This document shows, in pieces, positions 5,987 through 59,021 of a stretch of 64,000 bases of DNA (position 1 is the first letter of the stretch; every line of letters begins with the position of its first letter). The translations under genes were made by a program, and so were the position numbers. The notes under the pieces are model-generated. The model made no database searches. It was not told the DNA's origin and saw only the letters and a program-made list of their open reading frames with translations. This DNA is from an uncultured Pirellulales bacterium (GTDB taxonomy: Bacteria > Planctomycetota > Phycisphaerae > Sedimentisphaerales > Anaerobacaceae), in contig CAZBST010000007.1 in assembly GCA_964494805.1 (NCBI GenBank), forward strand, positions 44,493 to 108,492. The letters are read 5' to 3'.

Positions 5987-8479
<2,493 letters not shown>

Positions 8480-12885: not shown

Positions 12886-14008
12886 CTAATTTTTCGATTC
12901 CCTATTTTTATTTTTGACCCTATATCTCAAGTAGCTTTCAATAAAGCCGTCAAGGTCTCCGTTCAGCACCGCATCCACATTGCCCGTCTGGAGGTTTGTT
13001 CGATGGTCCTTAACCATCTGGTAAGGCTGCAGCACATAGCTTCGTATCTGATTTCCCCAAGCTATTTCACCTTTATCGCTGTATAGTTTTGCAAGTTCGG
13101 CATTGCGCTTTTGCTGTTCGAGCATATATAGCTTGCTCTTTAGCATCTTCATTGCCTCCGCCTTGTTGCGATGCTGACTTCGGTCGTTCTGGCACTGCAC
13201 CGCAACACCTGTGGGTATATGTACAATTCTGACTGCCGAGCTTACTTTGTTGACGTGCTGGCCGCCCGCTCCGCTTGCACGATAGTAATCTATTTTGAGG
13301 TCATCCTCTTTTATATCGATGTCAACATCCTCGGACTCAGGTAAACAATCAACCGCTGCAAAGCTCGTATGGCGTCTCTTGTTGGCGTCAAATGGGCTTA
13401 TTCGCACTAATCTGTGAACGCCCATTTCGCAGGAAAGCCTGCCGAATGCAAACGGCCCGCTTACCTTCAGCGTCACTGACCGGATACCGGCCTCTTCACC
13501 GGGAGAAATATCAAGCTCCTCGACCTTGTATTTTTTTGTTTCGAAATACCGCCCATACATCCGCAGCAGCATACTGACCCAGTCGCAGCTTTCTGTCCCC
13601 CCGGCCCCCGCGTGAATGCTGAAAAAGCAGTTCTTCACATCATCCTGTCCGCACAATAGCCCCTCCAGTTCGATTTGTTCACATCGCTTTACCAGTTGTG
13701 CCAAATCATTTTCTAATTGTTCCAGCTCTTCTCTGTCCGATTCAGCCGCTGCCATATCGAACAGCTCCGCCAAATCTTTAACCTCGCGGGATAGCTCCTC
13801 CACCGGCTCGATTATTGATTTAAGTGCGCTTAAATGAGAGACCACCGATTGGGCTGAATCGGGATTGTCCCAGAACCCAGGCTTGGCCATTTTCTCTTCT
13901 AATTGCGCCAGTCGTGCCTTCTTGCTGGGCAAATCAAAGCCAGTCCCGGATTTTTTCGACCCGGGCCAACAACTCTGTTATTGTAGATTTTAATTCTGCA
14001 GTTTCCAT
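12886..14008 (-). CDS. prfB: Peptide chain release factor 2, expressed through a programmed +1 frameshift
   Basis: The track ORF 12886..13932 has RF2 content (SPF tripeptide, GGQHVNK). An upstream frame from ATG 14008 reads METAELKSTITELLARVEKIRDWL, then CTT TGA T. Shifting +1 at CTT gives D-L-P-S-K-K-A-R-L, joining the long ORF. Confidence 0.85.
13933..13939 (-). other. Programmed +1 ribosomal frameshift site CTT TGA T of prfB
   Basis: Read directly on the minus strand: ...cgg gac tgg CTT TGA ttt gcc cag caa g. This has the same architecture as the classical RF2 autoregulatory site. Confidence 0.8.
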
Positions 14009-14060
14009 CTGATGTGCGTTTATATCACATCCTATCACGATACGCAATCAGATAATCCGC

Positions 14061-14201
14061 TTAGCCCCGCCAACACCTTGGCGGGGTTCGCAGTTTCGGT
14101 TAGCCCTGCCGCTTGCGGCAGGGGTTATTGTGCAGAGGGGACGGCAATCTCAAAAATTTTAGCCCCCTGCATCGCAGGGGATTACTTAGCTAACGACTAA
14201 T
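14061..14201 (+). repeat. GC-hairpin module (ttagcccc-hairpins plus GCGGCAATCTCAAAA core), copy A
   Basis: Contains the hairpins ccccgccaacaccttggcgggg, ccctgccgcttgcggcaggg and cccctgcatcgcagggg, plus gacggcaatctcaaaaatttt. A homologous module lies at 22719-22801. Confidence 0.75.
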
Positions 14202-14303
14202 TTGCTGTTGTGTCCTCCAGTTCGGCCCTCTTTTTTACTTACTCCGTCCTGCGGACTGCGTAATACACTGGTTCCTCATTGCGGCCTCCGGAAGCAACAG
14301 CAA
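14202..14303 (+). repeat. R1: 102-nt element with 9-bp terminal inverted repeats (TTGCTGTTG...CAACAGCAA), copy A
   Basis: ttgctgttgtgtcctccagttcggccc...tccgtcctgcggactgcgtaata...cattgcggcctccggaagcaacagcaa. Four copies occur in the window. Confidence 0.9.
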
Positions 14304-14312
14304 ACAAAATCT

Positions 14313-14337
14313 GTCATTCCCGCGCAAGCAGGAATCC
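14313..14337 (+). repeat. R2: 25-nt palindromic hairpin repeat GTCATTCC-YGCG-YAAGC-RGGAATCC
   Basis: gtcattcccgcgcaagcaggaatcc, located 9 nt after R1 copy A. Four copies occur in the window. Confidence 0.85.
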
Positions 14338-14440
14338 ATTCCTTTTCTTATCATCACCGCACTAGTTGCGGCGGAGGTTATGCCATAGCCAGACCGAGGC
14401 CGAGAAGTAAGAGCGTGGCTAATTCGGGGATAGGGGTGAT

Positions 14441-15355
14441 TTAAGATTCTCCATTTTCAAGCAAGTTGTCATAAAACTTTTTCCTTTCTTCTTTCTGTAT
14501 TTTTTTAGCCACATCTAAAGGAAATTGCTTCTCATAATATTCTTTTTCAGATTCCTTTTCAGATAAAGACTTGCTTTGAATTTTTTCGCCTAACCATTGA
14601 ATATCTTTGCCTTCTTCTCGATACTCAAATGCAGTTTTTTGTTGAATTATAAAAAAATGCATTTTTGAACTTAATTCTTTACGTAGGTACTTCCAATGCT
14701 TAGCAAAATGGTGGTCATTTGCACTAGATCCATATATTGTATCTTGTGTTGTGGGGTGATTATGTATGTGAAGTACCAATGAAGATTCACGCATCATACT
14801 TAATAATTTATATTGTTCTTCTTTTTCGGGTTCATAATACACTCTGTCAGGCAGTCCAATATATTTTGAGATATTATTACTTGCTATGCCTTTTGCTCGT
14901 AACCAAACAGGGTTTCTTTCGAAATCAGATGGGATAAGAACCCAAAAAGCTTCTTCAACACCTTGGAAACCAATTTTTTCACAAGCTTCAGTTAAAATCT
15001 CAACGATTTTTGTCTTGGAAACTTTTAACAATTCAGTATTGGCCTGATATTTATCAAATTGAGATGATATTGCTTCAATCTCGTCTCTGTCGCTTGGTTT
15101 CATTTGAACTAATAATTCTTTTTCATCTTTAGGAGTGGGATCAAGCTGTTGCATAAAGTATTTTGCAACAATTTTAATATCTTTATCACCCTCTATAAGC
15201 GCCCAATAAAGAAGTCTTTTTTGGTCATCGTTTGAAAGATTATTGAAGAAAATTTTGGACCTGCCTGGATCGCCATAACGGTATAGCGATTCAATTCCAT
15301 TTTTAAAAAGAAAGATTTTGTCTCGCAATTCGTCTGTGCTTAGCCTCTTGTCCAT
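14441..15355 (-). CDS. RadC-like JAB/MPN-domain protein with an unknown N-terminal extension
   Basis: 304 aa. EEAFWVLIPSD ... SSLVLHIHNHPTTQDTIYGSSANDHHFAKHW resembles the RadC/JAMM pattern (E..., HxH, S-x-x-D), but the His-to-Ser spacer is longer than canonical. The gene is strongly AT-rich. Confidence 0.55.
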   Translation of the reverse strand: MDKRLSTDELRDKIFLFKNGIESLYRYGDPGRSKIFFNNLSNDDQKRLLYWALIEGDKDIKIVAKYFMQQLDPTPKDEKELLVQMKPSDRDEIEAISSQFDKYQANTELLKVSKTKIVEILTEACEKIGFQGVEEAFWVLIPSDFERNPVWLRAKGIASNNISKYIGLPDRVYYEPEKEEQYKLLSMMRESSLVLHIHNHPTTQDTIYGSSANDHHFAKHWKYLRKELSSKMHFFIIQQKTAFEYREEGKDIQWLGEKIQSKSLSEKESEKEYYEKQFPLDVAKKIQKEERKKFYDNLLENGES

Positions 15356-15462
15356 TTTAATTTTTTACCATCCTATCCAGAAAGTTTTATCTCTTCTTTT
15401 AGTATAAGAATTTCCCATTGCTTCTTCAACACTCTTTAATTCGCCCTTGTTGGTTTCGATGG

Positions 15463-15837
15463 CTACTGTGTTTTGCGCCAGATCCAAATAGTAACAAGTA
15501 GAGAAATTACAGAGACCGCTACAGCGACTAAAGCCGAAAATGCTGAGAGCCATGTAGCTGATGCCATTTTTCTGGTATATTGATCAGTTCGCTTGTTTTG
15601 AATCCATTTCTGTATTTGCTCAAATGTTTGGGGATAAGTAAGCGGTATACAATGTATATCGGCGGAATGTTTAGGCAGACCTATAGACTCAGATAGTTTC
15701 AATAATTCCTGACCTTTCTGCTCTTTGGTATTTTTCTTATCTTTTACTATGTGAAGCAATTTCTGTTCGACTTCTTCTATTGTTGGCTCTGATGTCTTAC
15801 TGTTCTTATCCTGACATTCTGATTTTGCTTTGCACAT
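15463..15837 (-). CDS. Small C-terminally membrane-anchored protein, unknown function
   Basis: 124 aa with a charged Lys/Glu-rich N-terminal part and a C-terminal TM (WLSAFSALVAVAVSVISLLVTIWIW). AAGGAG lies 6 nt upstream of the ATG. AT-rich like the JAB gene just downstream. Confidence 0.55.
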   Translation of the reverse strand: MCKAKSECQDKNSKTSEPTIEEVEQKLLHIVKDKKNTKEQKGQELLKLSESIGLPKHSADIHCIPLTYPQTFEQIQKWIQNKRTDQYTRKMASATWLSAFSALVAVAVSVISLLVTIWIWRKTQ

Positions 15838-16099
15838 TAAATTCTCCTTATGGTTATTAAAGGTACTCTGGTTCAGTTTTTAACGGCCAACAATGCTTAT
15901 GCAGCCTGTTTTGGTAAATGCGAAAACCGTCTTTTCATTAGATAACATTATTGCCGATTAAAGTCAGAGAATAAATGGGAAATTGCGTTGAGGTTGCAAA
16001 AATCAATCAAAAGCGCAGCTACCCGCACACCAAAAACGGCTAATTTTAGATTTTTTTACTCCTTTTCTCACAATGAGTTACGAGAACCGAGTGACGAGA

Positions 16100-16150
16100 G
16101 ACGATAACCTTTTTCGCATCAAACGCGCAAGTCCATCCAATCATAGAGAG
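16100..16150 (+). repeat. R5 module, partial copy (ttttcgcatcaaACGCGCAAGTCCatccaat)
   Basis: Shares the core ttttcg..ca...cgcgcaagtcc.tc.aat with 25262-25296 and, inverted, 51645-51680. Confidence 0.6.
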
Positions 16151-16286
16151 ACGGTCTCTCTTTAAAGGAATCGCCAATGCCATCCGGCTAACTCAAATAA
16201 ACATTTATCAATAATCAATAATCGATAATCAATCGTCCGTCATAGCGATAGCGAAGATGGATACGAAGGTTGTTTGCGCGGAAGGG

Positions 16287-16433
16287 GAAAATCAATCAAA
16301 ATGAACAAAATTATGCAAAACGAACCCAATTTTAGAAATGCCAAAAATGACTGTAACTTTAGTAACAGCAATGACTACGAACTATGAACAACGAACTATG
16401 AACTCTTTAAAACAAACCCAATCAAACCCAAAT
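16287..16433 (+). repeat. R4 module (~145 nt; aaaatcaatcaaaatgaac...aaaacgaacccaatttt.gaaatgccaaaaatg...acaatgacta...)
   Basis: Aligns by eye with 25483-25600 (+) and with the reverse complement of 51282-51427. Confidence 0.8.
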
Positions 16434-16436
16434 AAT

Positions 16437-16470
16437 CTCCCCGCGAAGCGGCTCCGCAATTTTGCATTTT
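16437..16470 (+). repeat. R6 short hairpin repeat (ctccccgcgaagcggctccgcaattttgcatttt)
   Basis: Its reverse complement recurs at 56652-56685, between convergent PEP-CTERM genes. Confidence 0.7.
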
Positions 16471-16493
16471 ACACTTTGATTTTTAATTTTCTT

Positions 16494-17717
16494 TTATTGA
16501 GTCAGAAGCTGTCCGCCGAGAATCCTGTTCACATCTCTTTTGATGTCTGCTTCGCTAACAGGCCATCCTGCCTCGGCGATATCGGAATACTTCTCGCCCA
16601 AAACATCGGCGATAACCTTGCGCGAGTGCGACCATTTATAAATGAGCTGGTCAATTATACGGGCATCGCTGTGCTGCGGTATCATTGTCAGTCCCAGAGT
16701 TTCGATGCGCTCGTACGTCATTTCGCGGATGATACTCGGATTGTTCAAAAACCACCAGCACCCGAAGACAATCAGGTTTTTGAACTTGCGGGCGACAATG
16801 CAAAGCTCATGCTGGTTTTCACGCGACAACATCGTTACGAGAAATCTCACGTCCGGCCAGTCACGGGCAAGCTTGGCCACCTGCTCGACATCGGCTTTCC
16901 CAACGCCGTCACCCGCAACTCTCAGGGCGGGGTTTACCGCCCTCGTGACGCCAATCATCATTGCAAAAGGCAGCTTATGTTCTTGCGCAATAGGCAGCAC
17001 GCATTCCAGAATCAGTTTCGCCCTTGTCCCGCCGTCTTCTATGCTGAAGTCCGGCGGCAGCGAAACCGCCATATACATCGGCTCCATCTTTTCAATCCAC
17101 ACCTTGAGGAAATCCTTGACTGAGCTTGCCGTTTTTGCATCTACCTTATCGCCTGTTATTTGCTCATTTATTTCCTTACCGTACTGCTGAAAATTATTGA
17201 GTATGTTGTCTATTCTCAAAGCCGCCTTGAATCTACTGTCGGGATTGCCGCCGCCGTTCCATATCGGCTGCTCTTTTTTATCGAATGGGTCGTTCGTCAT
17301 AACGACATACTTGATATTAGCCAGCTCGAAGACTTTATCGACGTATTTGCCGACAGAAATCTCGGCGAAGTATTTGCGTATTTTATTAAGGTCTTTGCTT
17401 TTCACATCCAGCCCGAGCTCGTTAAGGACTGTCACCACGCCGCGGGCGGCCTCGCTTATCGGCGAATTTTTTATGAACATCTCTTCCCATATAAGCTCCG
17501 CCTGTTTTTGTTTCGACATATTCCAGAAATCATCGTAGCGCAGCTCCGGCTTATATCTGAACAGCTCCGCGATGAGATAGTGATAGGTTAGAAGTTCATC
17601 GACACCCCATAGCAGTAAATCGCCGAAGGCCTCGCTGTACGTATGCGTATGAATATCAGCTATCGGGGTCTCATCAACGATTTTACTAACCTGCCCTTTG
17701 AGTTTTTTCAACTCCAT
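16494..17717 (-). CDS. Amidohydrolase-superfamily TIM-barrel protein (possibly uronate-isomerase-like)
   Basis: The track ORF extends to 17936 and overlaps gnd. ATG at 17717 (MELKKLKGQ) lies 13 nt after the gnd stop. IADIHTHTYS is a metal-binding HxH-type motif near the N-terminus. The functional guess rests on that motif and the sugar-acid gene context. Confidence 0.55.
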   Translation of the reverse strand: MELKKLKGQVSKIVDETPIADIHTHTYSEAFGDLLLWGVDELLTYHYLIAELFRYKPELRYDDFWNMSKQKQAELIWEEMFIKNSPISEAARGVVTVLNELGLDVKSKDLNKIRKYFAEISVGKYVDKVFELANIKYVVMTNDPFDKKEQPIWNGGGNPDSRFKAALRIDNILNNFQQYGKEINEQITGDKVDAKTASSVKDFLKVWIEKMEPMYMAVSLPPDFSIEDGGTRAKLILECVLPIAQEHKLPFAMMIGVTRAVNPALRVAGDGVGKADVEQVAKLARDWPDVRFLVTMLSRENQHELCIVARKFKNLIVFGCWWFLNNPSIIREMTYERIETLGLTMIPQHSDARIIDQLIYKWSHSRKVIADVLGEKYSDIAEAGWPVSEADIKRDVNRILGGQLLTQ

Positions 17718-22718: not shown

Positions 22719-22801
22719 TTAGCCCCGGCACCTGTGCCGGGGGTCATTGCGAGCGCAGCGCGGCAATCTCAAAATGTTTAGCCCCGCAATTTATTGCGCG
22801 G
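22719..22801 (+). repeat. GC-hairpin module, copy B
   Basis: ttagccccggcacctgtgccggggg tcattgcgagcgcagcgcggcaatctcaaaatgtt tagccccgcaatttattgcgcgg. Same order as 14061-14201, directly preceding R1. Confidence 0.75.
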
Positions 22802-22903
22802 TTGCCGTTGTGTCCTCCAGTTCGGCTCTCTTTTTCATTTACTCCGTCCTGCGGACTGCGTAATACTAATGTTCCTCATTGCGGCTTCCGGAAACAACAG
22901 CAA
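22802..22903 (+). repeat. R1 102-nt TIR element, copy B
   Basis: About ten mismatches against copy A by eye. Left flank of the Panacea-HD cassette. Confidence 0.9.
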
Positions 22904-22972
22904 CTAGGGAGCTTTTATCTGCTCCAAAATACCTAAATTAATGAAGATTTTAAAAATAATAATATAAAAAGT

Positions 22973-23001
22973 ATTGATTGGTCGATAGAGCATGTATATC
23001 A
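22973..23001 (+). promoter_or_regulatory. Putative sigma70-type promoter of the cassette (TTGATT-17-TATCAT)
   Basis: ttgatt ggtcgatagagcatgta tatcat, about 50 nt upstream of ATG 23054 (GGAGAG RBS). Confidence 0.4.
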
Positions 23002-23053
23002 TATTAGAGTTAGTGGGTGAATTTTATCTTGGCGTCTAACCGGAGAGTGTGTC

Positions 23054-23548
23054 ATGGATAGGCAACAAATAAGCGTAAAGCTTACCATCGATGGTTTGAA
23101 GCTGCCATTCAAAATAGATAGCTTTGAAGACCGTCTGATATTGCAAAAAGCTGTTTATCTAGCACAAACAGCAGGAATAAATTTAGGCTACTACTATCAG
23201 TGGTATCTTTATGGCCCGTATTCTCCGTCCCTCACCCAAGACGAATATGCTATCGATATGGACATTTCAACAGGGCTGGATGAATCCAGAAAGTGGAAAC
23301 TGGACGACGCCTCGCGTAGACGATTAGGAGAAATACAAGCAATCTTTACGGAGCCCCAGAGAAACAAGCTCAGGAGGAAGCTGGAGTTGTTGGCATCAGT
23401 CCACTTCTTGATTGACCGCAAGCAAGTCCCCGGAGCAAATACTAAGCAGATCACTGAAACTTTGAAACGGTTCAACAAAGATTTCAGCGAGGAGGAAGTC
23501 AACGGGGCGTTGGGGGGGCTGAAAACTTATGGTCTCCTCCAAAGGTGA
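23054..23548 (+). CDS. Panacea/DUF4065 (SocA-like antitoxin domain)-like protein
   Basis: 164 aa. RLILQKAVYLAQTAGINLGYYYQWYLYGPYSPSLTQDEY fits the DUF4065 pattern as I recall it (KLQKLLY.aq ... W..GPv.p..Y). It overlaps the downstream gene by 20 nt. Confidence 0.5.
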   Translation: MDRQQISVKLTIDGLKLPFKIDSFEDRLILQKAVYLAQTAGINLGYYYQWYLYGPYSPSLTQDEYAIDMDISTGLDESRKWKLDDASRRRLGEIQAIFTEPQRNKLRRKLELLASVHFLIDRKQVPGANTKQITETLKRFNKDFSEEEVNGALGGLKTYGLLQR

Positions 23549-24935
23549 TGGCTTAGGAAAATCCATCGCTGATCCAATTCATGGCAATATACTGCTAAAA
23601 AAACGTGAAGTAAAAGTCATAGATACACCATCTTTTCAACGCCTGCGTCAACTTAAACAACTTGCAATGGCGCAATTGGTGTATCCATCTGCAACACTCA
23701 CTAGGTTTACTCACAGCATCGGTGCTTTGGGAACAATGATACGGATCATTCATGCTGCTAGGGATAATGGTATCGAATTTAAAGATGAAGACGAAGATAA
23801 TCTCCGACTTGCGGCACTTCTACACGGTATCGGACACTATCCATATTCCCACTTGATGGAAAGCGTAGACAGAGTCAACCTAATTGAGGAACAGGTTGAT
23901 GGAGCAACAATACCCACCAAAAAGGCACCGTATCCCGACCATGTAGAGGTCGGAACAATAATTGCTGCTGGTCAGGGCGACTTGATTAATGCTATTGGCG
24001 GAGAAAACAGGGCCAAAGCGGTGGCAGCTATTTTTGCACGAACAGAAGCAGCAGACCTACAATTGAGCAAACTTATTCATAGCAGCTTCGACATAGATAG
24101 ACTGGATTATTTACTACGAGACTCCTATGCTACCGGAGTCCCTTATGGACAAATAGATATTAATTACCTGCTAAATAATTTAAAAGTAAGTCCGCAACGG
24201 GTAGTCGGTTTTAAAGAAAAGGCATTAGCTGCGGTGGAACATTTTCTTTTGGCTCGATTTTTTATGTACCGCGTAGTCTATTACCACAAAACAATTTACG
24301 GAATGGAGGAGGTGTGTCGCCAATTACTAAGGCGTCTTAGGGATCGTGATGGAGAGAAATATGGCTTGCCCGCTGACGGAGAGGAAATCAAGAATTTGGT
24401 TAAATCACCAAAACTAACCACGTTCACCGATGCTTTTGTAGATAATATTATCCAAAAAGCTGTTAACGATGAAGAACCAATTGTCCGAACTCTAGCGAGA
24501 GCAATACAGAGCCGAAATCCTCCTAAGTTACTGAAGGAAGTTCCGGTGTGCGAAGAAGCAGCTAAAAGGTCCCACACTGGTAAAACTTTCATCCAAAATT
24601 GTAAGGAAAAATTGAAAGATTTAGCTAAGTCCTCTAAAATACCCCTTAAGCAATTTTTACTTTGCGAAATTATACTGCCTATAATCAAACAACCAAAAAA
24701 ATTCACTGCAACCGAAGTAGCTAAGCTTGGGCTGCAAGAAATCTATGAGATGGCATACGAAGAAGAAGGAGAAGATATCAAGATTTTTACTGCTGATAAG
24801 AAAGAACCAACATCGCTGATGAAAACAGAACACAGTTTGGTAGTTAAATATTGCAAGTTATTCACTTCAAATCTTTCGTCTTTATGTAGTTTACGAAAGC
24901 GAGGACAGGGAAGGCATTGTTGCGAAATTGCGTAA
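23529..24935 (+). CDS. SAMHD1/dNTP-triphosphohydrolase-like HD-domain protein with a degenerate HD dyad (HG)
   Basis: 468 aa with IADPIHGNI..., FQRLRQLKQL, YPSATLTRFTHSIGA, LAALLHGIGHYPYSH (canonical LLHDIGHGPFSH) and FDIDRLDYLLRDSYATGV. The C-terminal roughly 200 aa have no motif I recognise. Confidence 0.7.
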   Translation: MVSSKGDGLGKSIADPIHGNILLKKREVKVIDTPSFQRLRQLKQLAMAQLVYPSATLTRFTHSIGALGTMIRIIHAARDNGIEFKDEDEDNLRLAALLHGIGHYPYSHLMESVDRVNLIEEQVDGATIPTKKAPYPDHVEVGTIIAAGQGDLINAIGGENRAKAVAAIFARTEAADLQLSKLIHSSFDIDRLDYLLRDSYATGVPYGQIDINYLLNNLKVSPQRVVGFKEKALAAVEHFLLARFFMYRVVYYHKTIYGMEEVCRQLLRRLRDRDGEKYGLPADGEEIKNLVKSPKLTTFTDAFVDNIIQKAVNDEEPIVRTLARAIQSRNPPKLLKEVPVCEEAAKRSHTGKTFIQNCKEKLKDLAKSSKIPLKQFLLCEIILPIIKQPKKFTATEVAKLGLQEIYEMAYEEEGEDIKIFTADKKEPTSLMKTEHSLVVKYCKLFTSNLSSLCSLRKRGQGRHCCEIA

Positions 24936-24974
24936 AAAGGTTAAAGACTGGGATAAAGCTTAATCTTTCTCGAT

Positions 24975-25076
24975 TTGCTGTTGTGTCCTACAGTTCGGCC
25001 ATCTTTTTTATTTACTTCGCCCTGCGGACTGCGTAATACTAACGTTCCTCATTGCGGCCTCTGGAAACAACAGCAA
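24975..25076 (+). repeat. R1 102-nt TIR element, copy C
   Basis: Same orientation as copy B. Starts 12 nt after the end of an alternative-frame tail of the HD gene. Confidence 0.9.
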
Positions 25077-25085
25077 AATAAAATT

Positions 25086-25110
25086 GTCATTCCTATGAAA
25101 GCAGGAATCC
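25086..25110 (+). repeat. R2 hairpin repeat (variant)
   Basis: gtcattcctatgaaagcaggaatcc, 9 nt after R1 copy C. The spacing matches locus A. Confidence 0.8.
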
Positions 25111-25145
25111 AGTTTGAAAAGCCCCCGCGGCAATTGAGCGGGGTA

Positions 25146-25296
25146 AAATCAATCATTTGCGCAGGGGGTTAAACCCCCTAAAATCCATTTTTTCGAAAAT
25201 TTTTTATCCCTTTATCTATAACGACTTAGCCAAAATCGCACCTCTGAAAATTCCAGAATTTTCGACAAATTCGCGCAAGTCCGTCAAATTATAGAA
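25146..25296 (+). repeat. R5 module (~150 nt)
   Basis: aaaatcaatca...aaaatccattttttcgaaaattttttatccctttatctataacgacttagccaaaatcgcacctctgaaaa...ttttcgacaaattcgcgcaagtccgtcaaatt aligns with the reverse complement of 51645-51795. Confidence 0.8.
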
Positions 25297-25482
25297 GGGA
25301 CGAATTCTGTCCCAAATCGCCCAGCAGGGCGATGGTCTTGGGGCCGGCAGGCCCGGGTCAGAAACGACTTAGCTGTTTTTAATCTTGTAGTGGAGTTTAG
25401 CCGTTTGTAAGACCAACGGAAACCCCATCGGAGACTCTCTATCAACAATGAACTGTAAAAGAGTTAAAACGGTTAACCGTTC

Positions 25483-25600
25483 AAAACAAACCCAATTTTA
25501 GAAAAACCAAAAATGCTTATAAGTGTATTAATTACAATGACTAATAACAAAAATGAACGTTCAACCAACTTTGAAAAACGAACCCAAACAAAGCCAATTT
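25483..25600 (+). repeat. R4 module
   Basis: aaaacaaacccaattttagaaaaaccaaaaatgcttataagtgtattaattacaatgactaataac...aaaaacgaacccaaac. Confidence 0.8.
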
Positions 25601-25623
25601 ATGGTGAGCCTGTCGAATCCATT

Positions 25624-51281: not shown

Positions 51282-51427
51282 AATTGGGTTCGTTTGGGTT
51301 CGTTTTTGAGCTTGGCCGTTTTAAGTTTTTGGTTATTAGTCATTGTAATTACTACATTTACAAGCATTTTTGGCATTTCGAAAATTGGGTTCGTTTTGCA
51401 TTTTTTTGTTCATTTTGATTGATTTTT
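51282..51427 (-). repeat. R4 module, inverted copy
   Basis: The reverse complement reads aaaatcaatcaaaatgaacaaaaaaatgcaaaacgaacccaattttcgaaatgccaaaaatgcttgtaaatgtagtaattacaatgactaataacc... Confidence 0.8.
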
Positions 51428-51644
51428 CCTTCCAGCGCAGAAAATCTCCGTATCAACCGCAGAGGGCGCAGAGAACGCAGAGGAACAAGTTATAAATGGT
51501 ATTAGCTGTTTATCCGTAACCGCTCATTGGTAATTCCTTTAAAAAACTATCCCCCGCTACTTCGCTTCGGCGAAGTAAGACGACGGGGGCGACCCCCTTT
51601 AGAGTAAACGGCACTCTATACAAAGGGGCAGGCGAAGTGTCGTC

Positions 51645-51795
51645 TACAATTGGAGGGACTTGCGCGATTGATGCGAAAATTGTGGGGTTTTCAGAGGTGT
51701 GGTTTTGGCTAAGTCGTTATAGTTAAAGGGATAAAAAAATTTTGAAAAAATGGGTTTTAGGTATGGGGGTATCTGCGCTTTTGATTGAAGTTTAA
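51645..51795 (-). repeat. R5 module, inverted copy
   Basis: The reverse complement aligns with 25146-25296 (…cattttttcaaaatttttttatccctttaactataacgacttagccaaaaccacacctctgaaaa…ttttcgcatcaatcgcgcaagtccctccaatt). Confidence 0.8.
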
Positions 51796-51836
51796 CCGCT
51801 GAGAACGCAAAGAGCGCAGTGATTTTTAGATCTAAG

Positions 51837-51938
51837 TTGCTGTTGTTTCCGTAAGCCGCAATGAGGAACATCAGTATTACGCAGTCCGCAGGACGAAGTA
51901 AATAGGAAAGATGGCCGAACTGGAGGACACAACAGCAA
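51837..51938 (-). repeat. R1 102-nt TIR element, copy D (inverted)
   Basis: ttgctgttgtttccgtaagccgcaatgaggaac...cgcagtccgcaggacgaagtaaat...ggccgaactggaggacacaacagcaa is the reverse complement of the R1 consensus. Confidence 0.9.
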
Positions 51939-52027
51939 ATTTTAAGGATTGGAGAGGGAAGATTTCAGTAGGTGGCAATGCCACATAGCGCGGACATTTG
52001 CGTAGGTTTTTAGACACAGATTAGTTT

Positions 52028-55000
52028 TTATAACTGGGCGTTCAATTCTTCTAACCAATCCTGCAGCGTTTCTGCAAATTCCTGCCAGGCCTGTTCGCCC
52101 TGTTCTTCAATCATCATTTCTTTAAGTTGCTCATCGGAGAGCAGCTCCTGGAGACACTCTATGTTATTGTTTATCTCTTCTTCATCAATCTCTTCTTCGA
52201 TTTGTTCCGCCTGGGGTTGCGGTTGGGGTTCTGGTTGTAGCTCAGGTTCAGGTTGCGGCGGCTCAGGCGCAGATTGTTCAGGAGGTTGAGATTCAGGCTC
52301 GGGCTGTAGTTCGATTTGCGGTTGTTGAGGTGATGATGCGTAAAAGGCTCCGCCGAAGCCATCGCCCATTGACGTTTCTTCGCCTAACTGCAGGAGCCAA
52401 TAATCACAGAAGCGAGCGAGGTCGTCCATATCGATTATATCATTGTGGGGGACTGAGATATCGCAGACGGGATTGTAGTCCGGCTGTTCTGAGCTTGTCA
52501 GCCAGGCCTGGGCGAAAACTGCAAAGTCATAAAAGTCAACGACGCAGTCCGGCTTAAAGTCGCCTACCGGATAGCATCCAGGAAAACACCTCATCCCTAA
52601 ATACAGCCGAATATCCTCAAAGAACACGGTGCCATCGCTTTCAGCCGGCGTACCGTCGCCGAAACCGATAATAATTTTCTTAACATCGGCCAGATTTACG
52701 TCATTATCATCAACGAAATCCTGCAGGACAATATTCCACTGGTGCCATTCTTCCTCTGTTATGTCGCTCATATAGGGATATTCCACTTTCCCGGTAGCGT
52801 CTTCGCCATCGGTTAGTTTCACATACATCTGCTGGTTGGCGTCATTGGTTGCTATGCCATAGAACCACAGCGACAATACTTTAGCGCCCATATCAAGCCA
52901 ATTCGGGTCTTTTCCAAGGTCGTCCAGCTGCGCGGTATTAACATCTGCTCTGGCCTCAGAATAGTATGGCCCATACGAATAATTCAAGAAATTATACCTC
53001 ATCGAATATCCACTGCGGCTCGGCCCCGACACATTAGAAACTATCGCGCAGGTGTAGGGGAGGTCCTGGGTCCAATAATCCTTCCATGTATCCCTCAGCC
53101 TATCAGGGTAAAAGGCACCATACGTCTTATTAAAATTGTCTATGAGATAGCAATCCGTCGTAAAGCCCCATACACTACCTCTCCATACGTTAGAGTCGTT
53201 GACTTCGTCGATACGCCAATAGTAAGTTGTCCCTAATTCAATTTTATTGGCCTCGATTGGATAAGAGGGATTGGAAACCGGGCCTTTATAAACTTCGCCG
53301 AGCGGCCAGGAGTTATTGGCATCGTTGACATCGTTGAAATTGGTGCCGAAGTAGATTTCGTGGCCATTAAGAGCGGCAGCAAAATATCCCGAGCACCAGG
53401 TGAGGTTGAGGTTAGGTTCGCCAGTGCATAAAAAATCAGATAATTCCCCGCAGGTCGGGTTGGGGTTACTTGCGCAGAGGACAGGTGTATGTTCACGAGT
53501 CCAGCGGGAATAATTACCGCCACTGATTTTGCATAAATTTGTGATTGAACCATAAGACGGGATGCAATCATTTACTTTTGCCGTTAACGTAACAGAATTC
53601 GATTCATTCGGTTCCAATGTGCCGATGTTCCAGGTAACGGTGTGAGTGCTGGGGTGATAAACACTATTTGGGCCGGAGGCGGAGATAAAGGCGAGGTCAT
53701 CAGGCAATAAATCAGTAATTACAACATCGTTGATGGTACCTATATAGTTAGGGTCGCCAACAGGCGGATTGAGGTAACTGATGGTATAATTTACATCATT
53801 GCCGGGGAGGACACCATTGGCGTCAGCGATATTATCAACCTTATTCAGAGATAGACCTAATGCGTTGGCAATGGCGAGAGCGTTGAAAAGATTTAGTCGG
53901 CCTCCTGTAACGCAAAGACCATTCAAAGCAGATTTTTGGTCAACAGAATTGAGAATAATATCTTTTACATTAAGATGAATCAGAGTTGGATTAATCGACC
54001 AGACAAGTGCAGCGGCCCCTGCAACAAACGGGGTAGACATTGATGTCCCGTCCTTATAATTGTATTGTCCGTATACCGCGCAGCTTAAGATATTCGACCC
54101 AGGCGCAGCCAAATCAACAGAAGTAAGACCCCAGTTTGAGCTTCCCGAGGCCCATATCGACCGCACATCATTAGAATCAGAAGCCATTACCGAGATGATG
54201 TTGCTGCAATCAAAACGGGCTGGATAAGATGGATATGAGTAACCATCGTTCCCTGCAGCCGCTATGAATAAGACACCCATCGCATTAGCGACATCAATGG
54301 CATCCTTCAACTCCTGGTCATATTCATAGCTACCCCACGAGTTGCTCAGGACCTTTGCTCCTTTATCAATAGCATATTCAATACAGGAGATGGCATTTGC
54401 TGTCGAACCCCCTTCACCCAAATCGTTTAGAAACTTCAAGGCCATTATCTTTACATTCCAGCAGACGCCCGTAACGCCCTGAGAATTGTTGCCCACAGCA
54501 CCTATTATTCCTGCGCAATGAGTGCCGTGCCCATTGTCATCCATCGGGTCACTGTCATTGTTATAGAAATCATACCCGAAACTACCATTGGAGTCTGTCC
54601 ACATATTGGCTGACAAGTCTGGATGGGTGTAATCAACGCCGGAGTCGATAACAGCCACGATAATGTTACTATCTCTTGTGATATACCAAGCCTCGGGCGC
54701 ATCAATATCGGCATCCGGCGTTCCGCCGGTCTGGCCTGTGTTGTGCAGTCCCCATTGGTCGCCGCCGTTAGGAACAGGACCGCAGGGGTCGTTGGGGAAG
54801 GTCGAGAAAGCATGATAGATGTAATTCGGCTGAATATGGATAATATCTGATGAGGTACCGAAAGTTGCTAAGGCAGATTCTACAGATATTCCTTGAGGTA
54901 ATTTAACCAAGCTTAATTCCGGAACGAGCTTGTAACTTCGAACTATGGAGCCGCCGCCCAAAGATGAAAGAATTTCTGCCTTCTCTCCTGCACTGCGTTG

Positions 55001-55147
55001 CTCCCCATTATCTTTTAACTTGAAGCGCACAAGTACCTCACTGGGAACATAGTTCGGCTCGATAGCTGAACCGGCAGATGATATGAATAAAAAAGAAGAT
55101 GTAATTACCATGATGATTATATTTCTGGACATGGGGTGATTCTCCAT
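52028..55147 (-). CDS. Secreted multidomain subtilisin-like serine protease (S8) with I9 propeptide, dockerin-like repeats and an acidic P/E/Q-rich tail
   Basis: 1039 aa with a signal peptide. Catalytic triad motifs are VAVIDSGVDYTHPDL, HGTHCAGIIGA and GTSMSTPFVAGAAAL. Also a TYYWRIDEV...WGFTT module. GDFKPDCVVDFYDFAVFAQAWL and DIIDMDDLARFCDYWL look dockerin/EF-hand-like. The tail reads QPQIELQPEPESQPPEQSAPEPPQPEPELQPEPQPQPQ. Start could be Met at 55132. Confidence 0.85.
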   Translation of the reverse strand: MENHPMSRNIIIMVITSSFLFISSAGSAIEPNYVPSEVLVRFKLKDNGEQRSAGEKAEILSSLGGGSIVRSYKLVPELSLVKLPQGISVESALATFGTSSDIIHIQPNYIYHAFSTFPNDPCGPVPNGGDQWGLHNTGQTGGTPDADIDAPEAWYITRDSNIIVAVIDSGVDYTHPDLSANMWTDSNGSFGYDFYNNDSDPMDDNGHGTHCAGIIGAVGNNSQGVTGVCWNVKIMALKFLNDLGEGGSTANAISCIEYAIDKGAKVLSNSWGSYEYDQELKDAIDVANAMGVLFIAAAGNDGYSYPSYPARFDCSNIISVMASDSNDVRSIWASGSSNWGLTSVDLAAPGSNILSCAVYGQYNYKDGTSMSTPFVAGAAALVWSINPTLIHLNVKDIILNSVDQKSALNGLCVTGGRLNLFNALAIANALGLSLNKVDNIADANGVLPGNDVNYTISYLNPPVGDPNYIGTINDVVITDLLPDDLAFISASGPNSVYHPSTHTVTWNIGTLEPNESNSVTLTAKVNDCIPSYGSITNLCKISGGNYSRWTREHTPVLCASNPNPTCGELSDFLCTGEPNLNLTWCSGYFAAALNGHEIYFGTNFNDVNDANNSWPLGEVYKGPVSNPSYPIEANKIELGTTYYWRIDEVNDSNVWRGSVWGFTTDCYLIDNFNKTYGAFYPDRLRDTWKDYWTQDLPYTCAIVSNVSGPSRSGYSMRYNFLNYSYGPYYSEARADVNTAQLDDLGKDPNWLDMGAKVLSLWFYGIATNDANQQMYVKLTDGEDATGKVEYPYMSDITEEEWHQWNIVLQDFVDDNDVNLADVKKIIIGFGDGTPAESDGTVFFEDIRLYLGMRCFPGCYPVGDFKPDCVVDFYDFAVFAQAWLTSSEQPDYNPVCDISVPHNDIIDMDDLARFCDYWLLQLGEETSMGDGFGGAFYASSPQQPQIELQPEPESQPPEQSAPEPPQPEPELQPEPQPQPQAEQIEEEIDEEEINNNIECLQELLSDEQLKEMMIEEQGEQAWQEFAETLQDWLEELNAQL

Positions 55148-55194
55148 AAAAGAATATTCCCTTATTCCAACGTGACCGGTCCCGAGTGCACGGG

Positions 55195-55782
55195 TTAACC
55201 TATGCGGCTATGACTTTTGCGCCGAATAATCTGCGTAAATCCAGAGACAAGTAATATAAAAGTAGCTGGCTCAGGGATGACCGTCCCTTCGACAATCAAT
55301 GTCGCATCATTCAGCACAACAGAACCGTAATCAATATAGTGCCATCCACCTGTACCAACGAATGAGATATGGCTAATCCTAATATTGCCTTGGCCGTCAA
55401 GAAGGTCCGACCAACTGGATGTTGGTGAAAGCGAGAATTGTGAAATTCTGTCAAAAATCTCTGGTTCTGGATCAGTTTCGGCCCCGCCCCATATTTCTGT
55501 AAGTCGAGGCCATGGATTAGAACCCAAGGATGCACGGATTCCTACATCCAGAGGAAACGGGTTGCAGGGGTCGGTGTCATATACCGCCAGACCAGCGGTG
55601 ATTCCACCCGACCAGTCGATATAAACGTGCGATATTTCACTAAAAGTAACTCCGAGGTTGAAATCTGCTTGCCAATATGAATTGAAACCATACGTTCCCG
55701 CACAGTTCAAGGGCAGTTCGACGGTATCGCCCAAAGCTACTCCCGCCATTGCAAGTATTATCGCAATAATCGCATATTTCAT
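55195..55782 (-). CDS. PEP-CTERM sorting-signal protein P1
   Basis: 195 aa with a signal peptide. C-terminus VIPEPATFILLVSGFTQIIRRKSHSRIG: PEP motif, then TM, then a basic tail. Confidence 0.8.
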   Translation of the reverse strand: MKYAIIAIILAMAGVALGDTVELPLNCAGTYGFNSYWQADFNLGVTFSEISHVYIDWSGGITAGLAVYDTDPCNPFPLDVGIRASLGSNPWPRLTEIWGGAETDPEPEIFDRISQFSLSPTSSWSDLLDGQGNIRISHISFVGTGGWHYIDYGSVVLNDATLIVEGTVIPEPATFILLVSGFTQIIRRKSHSRIG

Positions 55783-55914
55783 TTTTGCCTCCTCAACTTA
55801 CGCTTTTAACCTTTACATTATTATACCACATTTTGACCTCCCAAAACAACTAAAAATCAAGATAAAGGCCTCATTTTCCACTATTAAGATGCAGAAAAGG
55901 GGGGAAGTGTTCCC
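55776..55914 (-). repeat. Promoter/leader repeat L1, copy 1 (upstream of P1)
   Basis: About 139 nt, nearly identical to 57242-57380. The minus strand contains TGgTATAAT and GAGGAGG 5 nt before the ATG. Confidence 0.85.
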
Positions 55915-56006
55915 TTAACTTTCTTGAATTATAAAAAGGTTGCCAGAAATGAGGGAGTTTTTGAGGCCTTTCATGTTATTATCTGGTGATTAGAGGCAGT
56001 ACTTTC

Positions 56007-56035
56007 TTGACATTTTCATGTCAATCAAATAAAAT
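56007..56035 (+). promoter_or_regulatory. 18-bp palindrome TTGACATTTTCATGTCAA overlapping a TTGACA-17-TAAAAT promoter for P2
   Basis: ttgaca ttttcatgtcaatcaaa taaaat. The palindrome spans 56007-56024 and recurs at 58784-58801. Confidence 0.5.
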
Positions 56036-56108
56036 ATTTTGTGAGTAGTTTTTTGGTATGCCCCACTCGTTGAGGAAGCGGTTATTTCGTAGTATAAGGG
56101 AGGCAGGC

Positions 56109-56564
56109 ATGAAACGATTATTGCCAATAGCTATTATTATGATAATAATATTTTGCCCTCTGAAAACAGCGAAGGGAATTCTGATAGAAGATGTACATAC
56201 GGATCCGATCGAACCAAAAGATGTAGACATCATTACGATAGTTGTTTCCGGGATAGGTGGAACTCCAACTTGGATAGATGATTCTGATTTTCGAATAGAA
56301 GATACCTCTCTCGAACTCGATATCTTTTTAAGGTTTGGCCCTTACGGAGCGATATCACCATGGTCTCATTCAGAGATAATCGGGACGCTGCCTGCGAATT
56401 ACTATGACCTTGCCGTAAGTGCATATGTTTATAATGATTTAACCGAGATATATGAGTTTAGAGAAACATATTCAACCGGATTCACCGTTGTTCCGGAACC
56501 GGCGACATTGCTGCTATTGACTATGGGAGCGGTTTGGATTCGAGCAGGAAAACGCAGAACGTAA
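56109..56564 (+). CDS. PEP-CTERM sorting-signal protein P2 (paralog of P4)
   Basis: ATG 56109 with GGGAGG upstream, and a signal peptide. C-terminus FTVVPEPATLLLLTMGAVWIRAGKRRT. Confidence 0.8.
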   Translation: MKRLLPIAIIMIIIFCPLKTAKGILIEDVHTDPIEPKDVDIITIVVSGIGGTPTWIDDSDFRIEDTSLELDIFLRFGPYGAISPWSHSEIIGTLPANYYDLAVSAYVYNDLTEIYEFRETYSTGFTVVPEPATLLLLTMGAVWIRAGKRRT

Positions 56565-56651
56565 CATCAAAAAATGGCGGCTGTCCCCATAGAAGAAATT
56601 TAAAAATCAATCCGTCTTTGCTGTGCTACGCCGAGACGCTGCGCGAATGCA

Positions 56652-56685
56652 AAAATAAAAATTGCGGAGCCGCTTCGCGGGGATT
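56652..56685 (-). repeat. R6 short hairpin repeat, inverted copy
   Basis: aaaataaaaattgcggagccgcttcgcggggatt, close to the reverse complement of 16437-16470. Lies between the convergent stops of P2 and P3. Confidence 0.7.
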
Positions 56686-56696
56686 TTTAGAAGTGA

Positions 56697-57248
56697 TTAA
56701 ACGATTCTTTTTCTTGTTAAATAAATTATGCCGCCAAGGAGTAAGGCCAATGAACTTGGTTCGGGAACAACAACTATTGGGACTGAAACCATACTATCAT
56801 AATCAGGTTCTGGTGCACCGCCGTCCAATCCGCCAATTACATCGTATTCGCCAACATTTATTAGATTGTCTTCGCTGTCCCGCATATCCCATATATAAGG
56901 AGGGTCAAAATCAGGAAACTCTTTATATTCACCGGGGGCCAATGTAAACATAGTAGGCTTGGCATACCAACCCTCTACGGCTGACCAAATATTTTCCCCA
57001 TCCTTTTCGACCCAGAAGTTCCATGCGGGACTACCGCCAAAATAAAATGTTACATCCTCACTTCTCAAATTGGTTACTCTATAAAGCATTTCTACATCTT
57101 CGCCTAAATCGTAAGTAGATTTATTCGTCTGGACGTAGTATTCGATGCCATCTTCAATTATGGAATTTGAATTAATTGTTGCCATTGCGATGGGGGTTAC
57201 CCCAAATACCAGCACCATAAGGGAGATTGCAGAGATTACCTTTTTCAT
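56697..57248 (-). CDS. PEP-CTERM protein P3 with a BsuPI-like (intracellular proteinase inhibitor fold) domain
   Basis: 183 aa. TYDLGEDVEMLYRVTNLRSEDVTFYFGGSPAWNFWVEKDGENIWS...FTLAPGEYKEF...GEYDVIG matches the BsuPI pattern as I recall it. C-terminus VVVPEPSSLALLLGGIIYLTRKRIV. Confidence 0.6.
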   Translation of the reverse strand: MKKVISAISLMVLVFGVTPIAMATINSNSIIEDGIEYYVQTNKSTYDLGEDVEMLYRVTNLRSEDVTFYFGGSPAWNFWVEKDGENIWSAVEGWYAKPTMFTLAPGEYKEFPDFDPPYIWDMRDSEDNLINVGEYDVIGGLDGGAPEPDYDSMVSVPIVVVPEPSSLALLLGGIIYLTRKRIV

Positions 57249-57380
57249 TTTTGCCTCCTCAACTTACGCTTTTAACCTTTACATTATTATACCACATTTC
57301 GACCTCCCAAAACAGCTAAAAATCAAGATAAAGGCCTCATTTTCCACTATTAAGATGCAGGAAAAGGGGAAACTGTTCCG
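57242..57380 (-). repeat. Promoter/leader repeat L1, copy 2 (upstream of P3)
   Basis: Differs from copy 1 at only a handful of positions (for example tttTgacc/tttCgacc and acaActaa/acaGctaa). Confidence 0.85.
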
Positions 57381-57405
57381 TAAATTCAATCAAAATTCTT
57401 AAAAA

Positions 57406-57996
57406 TTACGTTATCAGATAACCGTTGTTATCGTCGTCTATGCCGTTACCGGGAATTTCTCCCGGGTTAATCCACATATTTGCTTTCAGGTCAGGGTGAG
57501 TGTAGTCAACGCCAGTGTCAATTACAGCAACGATAATGTTACTGTCGGTGGCGATGTCCCAAGCCACCGGCGCATCAATGTCGGCATCGGATATTCCTCC
57601 GGTTTGGCCAGTGTTGTGTATTCCCCAGAGCTGACTAAAATATGGGTCGTTGGGAAGCGTTGAATAGCGTTTAATTTTATAGTTAGGTTCTACATACAAG
57701 ATTTCGTCGGTATTTTTAAATAAGGAGAGAGCGTTTTCGACTGTCTGATTTTCAGGTAGCTTTACTAAGGTCAAGCCTGGAACAAATCTCATAGATTTTT
57801 TTATTGTGCCTGCACTAAAGGCAGCCAAAATCTGATTACATTCGTGGATAGTCCGCTGAACTCCTGTGGTTTTTGGGGCGAATCTTACGAGTAATTCACC
57901 TTCCTTGTAAGGCAAATCTGAGGCTCCGGCATAATTTGAGATGAATACAAAACAAATAACAGAGATATAAAGATATCCACATCCTTTTTTAGACAT
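57406..57996 (-). pseudogene. Truncated S8 subtilase paralog (signal peptide, I9 propeptide and the Asp box only)
   Basis: 196 aa, collinear with the N-terminus of the 1039-aa protease (…NTGQTGG.SDADIDAP.AW....DSNIIVAVIDTGVDYTHPDLKANMW…). It stops at DDDNNGYLIT, before the His and Ser boxes and about 25 nt from the L1 repeat boundary. Confidence 0.6.
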
Positions 57997-58045
57997 AAAA
58001 TGACCCTCCTTGAGATAAGGTTAAATTTATTCTGGTTTTGCTTAA

Positions 58046-58540
58046 CTATCGCAGCCCCTTGGTTTTCCTTCTGGGAAAGTTTCTGAAGAACGGCAAAGCG
58101 AGGACAAAAATAGTAAGCATACTTGGCTCCGGGACGACAGTGAAATCAACATTATAGATATCCTGGAGCGTGCTATCGTAATTATCGAATGCTCTGACTT
58201 CAAGACTGTAAACCTCCGCAGGCAAAGGTGAAATTTGCTTGGAATAGGTCCAGTTGCTTAACGAATACTGGGCACCCATCTCAATATACAAGTCTAACTG
58301 AAGTGACGTTCCATTCTGTGAAAACAGGTCGTGTTCTACCCAACTCGGTGAGGTAGCTGCCCAGCCAGATATATTGAAGGTTATTATGTCGGTTTCTAAC
58401 GGCTGATTTGGGATTATATCAACGTTGTCTATCTGAATAGTGACCCCTATAGCTATTGGTTGGTATATAAATACTAACAAAACTATAAAAAGGGCTGTTG
58501 ACCACGTTTTTGTTCTAATTTCGAATATTATCTTTCTCAT
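58046..58540 (-). CDS. PEP-CTERM sorting-signal protein P4 (paralog of P2)
   Basis: 164 aa. Shares DIITxxxSG, TSLxLD, LPAxxYxL and FTVVPEP with P2. C-terminus VVPEPSMLTIFVLALPFFRNFPRRKTKGLR. Confidence 0.8.
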   Translation of the reverse strand: MRKIIFEIRTKTWSTALFIVLLVFIYQPIAIGVTIQIDNVDIIPNQPLETDIITFNISGWAATSPSWVEHDLFSQNGTSLQLDLYIEMGAQYSLSNWTYSKQISPLPAEVYSLEVRAFDNYDSTLQDIYNVDFTVVPEPSMLTIFVLALPFFRNFPRRKTKGLR

Positions 58541-58672
58541 ACTCCATCTCCTTCAAACAGCAGCCCTATAGACTGGACTACTCATTCAATTAACCGCTTC
58601 CTCGTTATAGCGTGGTATATTTATACCCTATTTTACCACTGCCTGAGCCGTAAAGTCAAGAGAAAAAACGCA
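58541..58672 (-). repeat. Promoter/leader repeat L2, copy 1 (upstream of P4; TTGACT-18-TAAAAT at 58630-58659)
   Basis: The minus strand reads cTTGACTttacggctcaggcagtggTAAAATagggtataaatataccacgctataacgaggaagcggttaattgaa... It is homologous to 59583-59734. Confidence 0.7.
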
Positions 58673-58783
58673 AGCATATCTTGTTATAAGATGCGCAAAA
58701 GCGGTTAAATGTTCCCATAATTTTCCTTAAATCTGTAAAGAATAACCGGACGAAAAATGGTGGCTGTTCCTAGTTTCCCTCCC

Positions 58784-58801
58784 TTGACATTTTCGTGTCA
58801 A
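58784..58801. promoter_or_regulatory. Second copy of the 18-bp palindrome (TTGACATTTTCGTGTCAA)
   Basis: Overlaps the stop codon of the 62-aa ORF. No -10 box is suitably spaced on either strand, so it looks more like an operator than a promoter. Confidence 0.4.
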
Positions 58802-58986
58802 TCATACGGATTGGCCGGATCTGAAGCCACACAAAGATTTGCCCGCAATATATTATCTGAAATTACCAATACCCAATCAGGGTCGGTATAGGTTGTTTCC
58901 ACAAATGTGTTTTCAGCCAACGATAAACTTGCCTGTCCTAACAGAATTAGAATTACCAGAATGGTATGTAATTTTACTTTTGACAT
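58798..58986 (-). CDS. Small secreted peptide or gene remnant
   Basis: 62 aa with a signal peptide (LHTILVILILLGQASLSLAEN). Lies 35 nt downstream of P5. Its reality is uncertain. Confidence 0.35.
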   Translation of the reverse strand: MSKVKLHTILVILILLGQASLSLAENTFVETTYTDPDWVLVISDNILRANLCVASDPANPYD

Positions 58987-59021
58987 GCCATCACTCCCTC
59001 GATAGTTAATTGATGTTCGAA

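Follow-up and report, generated by a model that had tools for sequence, protein, structure and literature searches.

The AT-rich segment between prfB and a gene for a 408-aa protein, in a 64-kb window of contig CAZBST010000007.1, carries two genes, J and T, and a 28-nt promoter/operator-like element, R. The window is the whole stretch of DNA analyzed, to which all locus coordinates refer; labels beginning with L denote the homologous loci or contigs with which it was compared. J and T belong to an AT-rich accessory gene pool circulating in Planctomycetota (Sedimentisphaerales, Phycisphaerae and metagenome-assembled genomes (MAGs) labeled "Pirellulales"), and the members of this pool that share R encode mostly solitary conflict-type proteins. 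On balance, we favor the reading that the segment consists of two stacked single-gene cassettes from this lineage-wide, largely defense-like pool, with J acting as a stand-alone zinc hydrolase. Cassette J is made up of R, a 47-nt leader, the open reading frame (ORF) of 304 codons and a dead PEP-CTERM tail, and cassette T of a degenerate R-type leader and the 124-aa ORF; the insertion, specific to this lineage, would lie between the stop codon of the 408-aa gene and the prfB promoter, with the cassettes arranged head to tail.

J has a GC content of 0.33 (0.26 at third codon positions, GC3) and T one of 0.38 (GC3 0.34), to be compared with 0.49–0.50 (GC3 0.52–0.60) for the four flanking housekeeping genes, which encode an M17 aminopeptidase (pepA), release factor 2 (RF2; prfB), the 408-aa protein (no Pfam family) and 6-phosphogluconate dehydrogenase. 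Among all 64 1-kb bins of the window (mean 0.463), bin 15001–16000 has the lowest GC content (0.358). The initial annotation of this DNA had described two genes for proteins of 124 and 304 aa in an AT-rich segment of foreign composition; both were recovered as minus-strand ORFs and the segment is indeed a compositional outlier, although the 50–60% GC given for its neighbors was somewhat high (measured, ~46–53%). That the segment had been inserted was likewise proposed there, and is borne out by L049, a syntenic contig of a MAG labeled Pirellulales with 77–78% nucleotide identity over the 408-aa gene, prfB and pepA. Here, ~110 bp join window position 16503 to window position 14007 and are all that separates the stop codon of the 408-aa gene from the prfB promoter, whose region is homologous to the window from ~14060 downwards. 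T and J are absent from this site, which thus does not carry the same genes with native composition, and the hairpins resembling repetitive extragenic palindromes (REP-like) and the mosaic modules are missing alike.

The repeat mosaic that frames the two genes was also correctly seen as being split by them. Module 14200–14338 recurs at 24973–25111 and, inverted, at 51828–51941, and the left and right halves of the mosaic are contiguous at both ~25 kb (24973–25602) and ~51 kb (51325–51941, inverted), while at the locus under study they stand ~1.6 kb apart. The empty site had been predicted to read as a direct junction of two repeat modules, termed R2 and R5 in the initial annotation. This is not the case, since L049 lacks the mosaic modules as well.

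We consider it highly likely that the ~2.4-kb block is an insertion and that T and J are independently mobile. The J DNA module (14393–15434, with its 3' boundary at ~14393–14384) shares 79–87% identity with loci whose flanking genes are unrelated (carAB, murD, metG/holB/tmk, thyA/alkaline phosphatase, opp), and the T DNA module (15392–15909) is 74–91% identical to loci without J, where T homologs precede a lipoprotein gene, genes for transmembrane (TM) proteins of 140 or 202 aa, or a convergent gene, with no J following. In tblastn searches with dereplicated contexts, T and J occurred together in 2 of ~27 J contexts and 2 of 6 T contexts, namely in the window and in L031, a 2.1-kb metagenome contig. 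The slot upstream of J is elsewhere occupied by a gene for a TIR protein (L001), by an HNH_5/PtuB-like gene (L019), or by nothing, and in L015 an HNH_5/PtuB-like gene lies downstream of J. The initial annotation had taken the two genes for one cassette or for a toxin/antitoxin, defense or anti-defense pair; they proved to be separate DNA modules, mostly found apart, and the neighborhood survey it had suggested disclosed no conserved partner of J. Its notion of a mobile, conflict-type setting stands, the neighbors in other J loci being of defense type with PADLOC matches to ThsB/TIR and PtuB-like models; J and T themselves have no match in PADLOC-DB 2.0 at E ≤ 10. In our view it is improbable that T and J form a functional two-gene module, be it a toxin/antitoxin system, a defense pair or a membrane anchor provided in trans by a split TM–J fusion. 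The two genes are co-directional and 107 bp apart, the arrangement is seen twice at ~91% nucleotide identity with differing upstream DNA (window and L031), and N-terminal TM helices in 14 of 23 inspected relatives would allow the J core to work at the membrane; yet J is without T in ~25 of 27 distinct contexts and T without J in four of six, the occupant of the slot upstream of J varies, an R/promoter-like element of J's own lies between the two, and T is dissimilar to the N-terminal extensions of the TM–J fusions. The split fusion was rejected on this last ground. The adjacency of T and J would alone be insufficient reason for a toxin/antitoxin pair assay, and in the reading of two separate cassettes T would be an unrelated tail-anchored membrane protein that lies next to J by chance.

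Element R was recognized because the T and J modules overlap there: positions 15392–15434 are common to both homologies. In its parts it reads TTGAAGAAGCAAC/TGGGAAC/ATTCTTATAC (window 15429–15402, minus strand), and it is present as a single copy in the window, where none is expected by chance; the match to the R-leader model has an nhmmer E of 2e-8. R can be read as a sigma-70-type promoter with −35 TTGAAG, a 17-nt spacer and −10 TATACT, or alternatively as carrying an extracytoplasmic function (ECF)-type GGAAC box. Ahead of unrelated genes, 41 distinct copies show a nearly invariant spacer, pointing to a bound factor. In its usual long form, the R leader goes on to a 9-bp inverted repeat and TATAAT, whereas the leader of J is short (47 nt) and carries a GGATGG Shine-Dalgarno-like site. 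R is found 47 nt upstream of the J start codon in the window, L031, L001, L014, L015 and L025, and also upstream of the TIR gene (L001), of T (L010–13, L031) and of genes that follow T (L020, L021); genes of 140, 202 and other lengths are among those it precedes. Scanning one genome per species (596 Gb) for the exact pattern returned 31 R stretches, for which we estimate a chance expectation of ~0.01, nearly all of them in MAGs of Sedimentisphaerales, Phycisphaerae, "Pirellulales" or unclassified Planctomycetota. In Planctomycetota MAGs, R precedes more than 25 unrelated accessory genes (L061–L089, L001, L010, L020, L021, L031). The downstream ORFs are all different and largely of defense type, and include ones for HSDR_N_2 and NucS_C-like nucleases (PD-(D/E)xK-type), DUF4238, TIR/SEFIR, ParB_N and Abi_alpha proteins, an ion channel, an ankyrin protein and small membrane proteins. 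Rfam gave no family for the leaders and for window 13800–16700, with one chance match to a long non-coding RNA (E 0.3). R as a miniature inverted-repeat transposable element or insertion sequence was considered and rejected, since no inverted partner copy follows the cassettes.

A factor common to the whole pool might transcribe R or control it, and J would therefore be co-regulated with defense-like genes. R is more novel than J, but lies largely outside the claim made in the initial annotation; it is the more useful lead of the two, as it provides a simple sequence handle with which candidate defense genes of Sedimentisphaerales and Phycisphaerae can be cataloged, and it opens to testing whether they make up a single regulon and how single genes pass from genome to genome without an obvious recombinase. 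One R copy (L070) sits on a contig binned as Spirochaetota, and one J homolog with 58% identity (L016, contig CAYFUV010000054.1) was binned as Bathyarchaeia. Either these are mis-binned short contigs or transfer has reached beyond Planctomycetota.

For J, we have little doubt that it has the JAB fold with an intact site. The AlphaFold2 (AF2) model of the whole protein (predicted local distance difference test score, pLDDT, 78.7) shows a helical N-domain, an alpha/beta domain and C-terminal helices (aa 266–301), the alpha/beta domain having the JAB/MPN fold that the initial annotation had led one to expect. The best Foldseek match in the PDB was RadC (2qlc; E 8e-4, probability 1.0, template-modeling score 0.59–0.65 on the target), followed by PfJAMM1 (5ld9), Rpn11 and BRCC36, and in BFVD the best matches were phage RadC-like JAB proteins. 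The E...HxH...S-x-x-D metal/catalytic motif of JAMM proteins is present in J with a RadC-like "HNHP" core: EEAFWVL corresponds to residues 134–140 and HIHNHP...SSAND to residues 196–214, with HIHNHP..S..D encoded at 14714–14770. Across 49 homologs (down to 25% identity), H198, N199, H200 and D214 are invariant, and conservation reaches 90% or more at E134, H196, P201 and S211. A JAMM-like signature with a long His–Ser spacer had been noticed in the C-terminal half of the 304-aa protein and is confirmed here; the spacer has 10 residues in J and up to ~14 in homologs, compared with seven in the textbook motif HxHx7Sx2D.

J is not RadC family proper (Pfam PF04002, YicR-type), as it falls below the gathering threshold, is without the helix-hairpin-helix (HhH) domain and reads HNHPTT, not HNHPSG. 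The Pfam RadC search recommended in the initial annotation gave no match even at E ≤ 10, and sequence-profile searches of the PDB with J returned nothing significant (RadC 2qlc, E 1.5). When the 49 family members were scanned singly, RadC (matched by 6 members, best E 0.0016) and Prok-JAB (by 4, best E 8e-4) were the most frequent Pfam families among the weak matches, all subthreshold. Canonical RadC (HNHPSG) was not found in the DNA of the retrieved loci. We assign J to the RadC clade because of its fold and motif, not because of profile membership. The N-domain, modeled alone with a pLDDT of 87.2, had no Foldseek match (best E 0.53, TOG/HEAT-like helices in the PDB) and no Pfam match, with MgtE_N appearing weakly in 4 of the 49 family members (best E 0.023). 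The proposal that the N-terminal ~130 aa are novel is thus supported by the lack of sequence and fold matches for aa 1–128. By hydropathy, J has neither a TM segment nor a hydrophobic N-terminus, and we regard it as cytoplasmic. Judged from these models, J is probably an active, divergent RadC-like JAB/MPN+ metallohydrolase with a new accessory domain.

J has 25 close homologs and 110 clusters in a profile search of 1.8 billion representatives, and we call the family small because of this proportion. Distant relatives add C-terminal TPR, HEAT or MORN repeats (P0033, P0048, P0051, P0063). N-terminal extensions were inspected in 23 family members, of which 14 are predicted to have one or two TM segments, a Zn-ribbon being present in a few; relatives bearing such TM or Zn-ribbon modules are P0025, P0047, P0049, P0052, P0053, P0056, P0060, P0070–72, P0076, P0084, P0099 and P0105. 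A separate observation concerns L046 (5150–9950), where a J homolog (30% identity) is part of a tightly overlapping four-gene operon whose other members encode a STAND-like AAA_16 ATPase and two MutS-domain-V proteins. This operon may be an uncharacterized multi-gene conflict system and points to conflict-type settings for the J family, but with different partners.

Mechanistically, J is probably a zinc-dependent hydrolase that is complete in itself and belongs to the RadC-like branch within the JAB/MPN+ superfamily. E134 is predicted to activate water, H198, H200 and D214 to bind the metal, and S211 to support catalysis; the helical N-domain and the C-terminal helices may serve target recognition or regulation. 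A protein substrate (peptide or isopeptide), met in the cytoplasm or at the membrane face, would be our favored candidate because relatives carry TPR/HEAT/MORN repeats, N-terminal TM or Zn-ribbon modules. Unlikely, as we see it, is that J processes nucleic acids or nucleotides instead of peptides, an activity suggested for the RadC clade, and acts on invader or host DNA or RNA. Such an activity would be in line with the top fold matches, which are RadC and phage RadC-like proteins and not ubiquitin-type deconjugases, with HNH-type nucleases among the neighbors, and with comparative analysis according to which RadC-type JAB domains are devoid of the ubiquitin-tail groove and take positions equivalent to those of nucleases (PMC5512222, PMC3239186). 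On the other hand, partner domains that bind DNA, such as HhH, helicase or primase, are absent from J, the family fusions are protein-interaction repeats and TM segments, and S211 of the peptidase-type motif is conserved. A defense or conflict role of J is possible, though we rate it a little short of even; literature searches on RadC-like JAB proteins in defense or anti-defense yielded only comparative-genomics papers (PMC5512222, PMC3239186). If J is active, it stands for a divergent JAB branch missed by current profile libraries and equipped with a new helical partner domain, in a phylum where accessory and immune genes have hardly been explored.

The 3' end of the J module is a PEP-CTERM-coding remnant that is degraded in the window. 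In L014, L015 and L025, the same tail follows after two stop codons (IPEPATLLLLGLGVVMLRKQL and similar) and passes the TIGR02595 PEP-CTERM cut-off (L014 1361–1432, L015 3700–3765, L025 ~6910–6980), and the tail DNA module also trails other small genes (L005–9, L034, L067, L087). J itself is no PEP-CTERM/exosortase substrate, given that the tail lies beyond one or two stops and is degraded in the window, and that a hydrophobic N-terminus is missing. The coincidence of the J-module ends with multi-copy sequences, together with the REP-like mosaic, suggests homologous recombination between dispersed repeats; the cassettes may thus move by recombination between R leaders, PEP-CTERM coding tails and REP-like mosaic modules. 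An integron/attC reading of the T–J spacer was rejected, as the spacer shows no R''/R' symmetry and what is conserved in it is the 5' promoter-like box; this assessment was made by inspection of the junctions. Going further, we tentatively envisage R and its leader as the mark of an undescribed Planctomycetota-wide set of solitary accessory/immune cassettes that are commonly regulated (for example by one repressor or an ECF sigma factor) and swapped via leader/PEP-CTERM-tail recombination, with J as a new single-gene JAB effector or regulator with a new substrate-recognition domain; this broader proposal is, at present, rather speculative. Very improbable is an origin of the segment as a phage- or plasmid-derived anti-defense remnant. 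RadC-like JAB proteins are common prophage and conjugative cargo, the BFVD matches are phage RadC-like proteins and the composition is foreign; against this, scans of IMG/VR found neither a J relative nor an R copy, the block and most contexts are free of phage, conjugation or integrase genes, and the neighbors are host-type defense genes.

Several points weigh against the reading of two cassettes with J as a zinc hydrolase from a largely defense-like pool. J misses every sequence profile in Pfam, NCBIfam, PADLOC and PHROGs, and RadC-clade JAB domains have no demonstrated biochemical activity; their activity is disputed, and nuclease or nucleotide processing, as opposed to action on peptides, has been proposed for them (PMC5512222, PMC3239186). 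A sigma-70 scan does pick up R, but its overall yield is at background level (7 sites versus 6.3 expected). R is missing upstream of J in L002/3/22/30, L019, L016 and L004, and is therefore not obligatory for J. The defense bias of R-linked genes is derived from 10 scanned proteins, 7 of which have a Pfam match. Finally, neither a recombinase nor a target-site duplication nor a terminal (inverted) repeat was found that would support the proposed mobility mechanism.

T has a charged N-terminal part of ~90 aa, one TM helix at aa ~91–122 (nt 15472–15567) and a terminal RKTQ. Its single hydrophobic stretch reaches a maximum Kyte-Doolittle 19-residue score of 2.54, in agreement with the C-terminal TM anchor attributed earlier to the 124-aa protein. 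T represents an orphan family of 7 database clusters, with no Pfam, NCBIfam, PADLOC or PHROGs family, and it weakly matches another tail-anchored neighbor (L014, E 0.011) in the TM segment only. Its leader in the window matches R-leader model positions 77–112 (nhmmer E 0.027), and L031 has this leader complete. Homology of the T module to L031, L020 and L021 stops at 15909, and the mosaic resumes at ~15975–15998. The positions of these features are compiled in Table 1.

Table 1. Features of the J/T locus in window coordinates.
Feature	Position	Strand	Remarks
Gene J	14441–15355	minus	ORF, 304 aa
J N-terminal helical domain, aa 1–128	14972–15355	minus	separate AF2 model; no known family or fold
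J JAB/MPN+ domain, aa ~132–256	14588–14962	minus	predicted metal site E134, H198, H200, S211, D214
Degraded PEP-CTERM-coding remnant, ITPIPELATLLLLGLGLAMA*	14378–14440	minus	in frame right after J stop; 3' end of J module
Element R, 28 nt, TTGAAGAAGCAATGGGAAATTCTTATAC	15402–15429	minus	promoter/operator-like tag, 47 nt upstream of J ATG
T–J intergenic spacer	15356–15462	minus	extended R region and short J leader (blastn boundaries; alignment of 11 leaders)
Gene T	15463–15837	minus	ORF, 124 aa, C-terminal TM helix
T leader	15838–15975	minus	only distal half of canonical R-leader recognizable (15887–15925); R box degenerate or missing
Block missing from syntenic relative L049	14062–16493 (~2.4 kb)		REP-like hairpins, J cassette, T cassette, right half of mosaic
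Left half of repeat mosaic (families D1, D5)	14200–14346		copies 22800–22938, 24973–25119, inverted 51828–51941
Right half of repeat mosaic (I7, I8, I1, D4)	15998–16436		copies 25177–25602, inverted 51325–51793

Three further regions of the window deserve mention. At 22800–25119, a second low-GC gene pair is located between D1 copies (22800–22938 and 24973–25111) in the same layout as at the J/T locus; it comprises 23054–23548 (164 aa, no Pfam family) and 23529–24935 (468 aa, HD and HD_assoc_2). The region 54500–59600 harbors five genuine small PEP-CTERM proteins (55–59 kb) along with subtilase-like genes, internal direct repeats (families D2, D3, D6) and a somewhat low GC content of 0.40–0.44. 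In prfB, the classical RF2 +1 programmed frameshift site (…TGG CTT TGA TTT…; ~13930–14012, minus strand) sits between a short upstream ORF (start ~14010) and the main ORF, an ordinary and known feature.

With regard to known systems, the cassettes resemble integron cassettes and "minimal mobile element" arrays in being single-ORF units in unrelated contexts that are stacked head to tail and often related to defense. They differ in that the shared sequence is located 5' of the ORF and is promoter-like, the 3' boundary being the PEP-CTERM remnant, and in that neither an attC-type R''/R' inverted repeat (GTTRRRY core) nor an integrase is seen. With the JAMM/MPN+ deconjugases (PfJAMM1 5ld9, Rpn11, CBASS Cap3, Bil/Bub JAB), J shares the MPN fold and the E..HxH..S..D site, and both occur near immune-type genes, but the fold scores of J are weaker than those to RadC; no ubiquitin-like, E1 or E2 partner genes were found in the ~27 J contexts, which sets J apart from CBASS (cyclic oligonucleotide-based antiphage signaling system) type II Cap3 and from Bil/Bub. 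Compared with RadC, J has no "SG" after HNHP, has a His–Ser spacer of 10–14 instead of 7 residues and an additional conserved histidine (H196), and in place of HhH has the novel 128-aa helical N-domain and the C-terminal helices. J is new within the known JAB superfamily; with the RadC-like JAB proteins (PF04002; 2qlc; prophage and conjugative-element forms) it has in common the fold, HNHP, the downstream S..D and the upstream Glu, and, like their solitary representatives of prophages and conjugative elements, it occurs as a lone gene in mobile AT-rich DNA.

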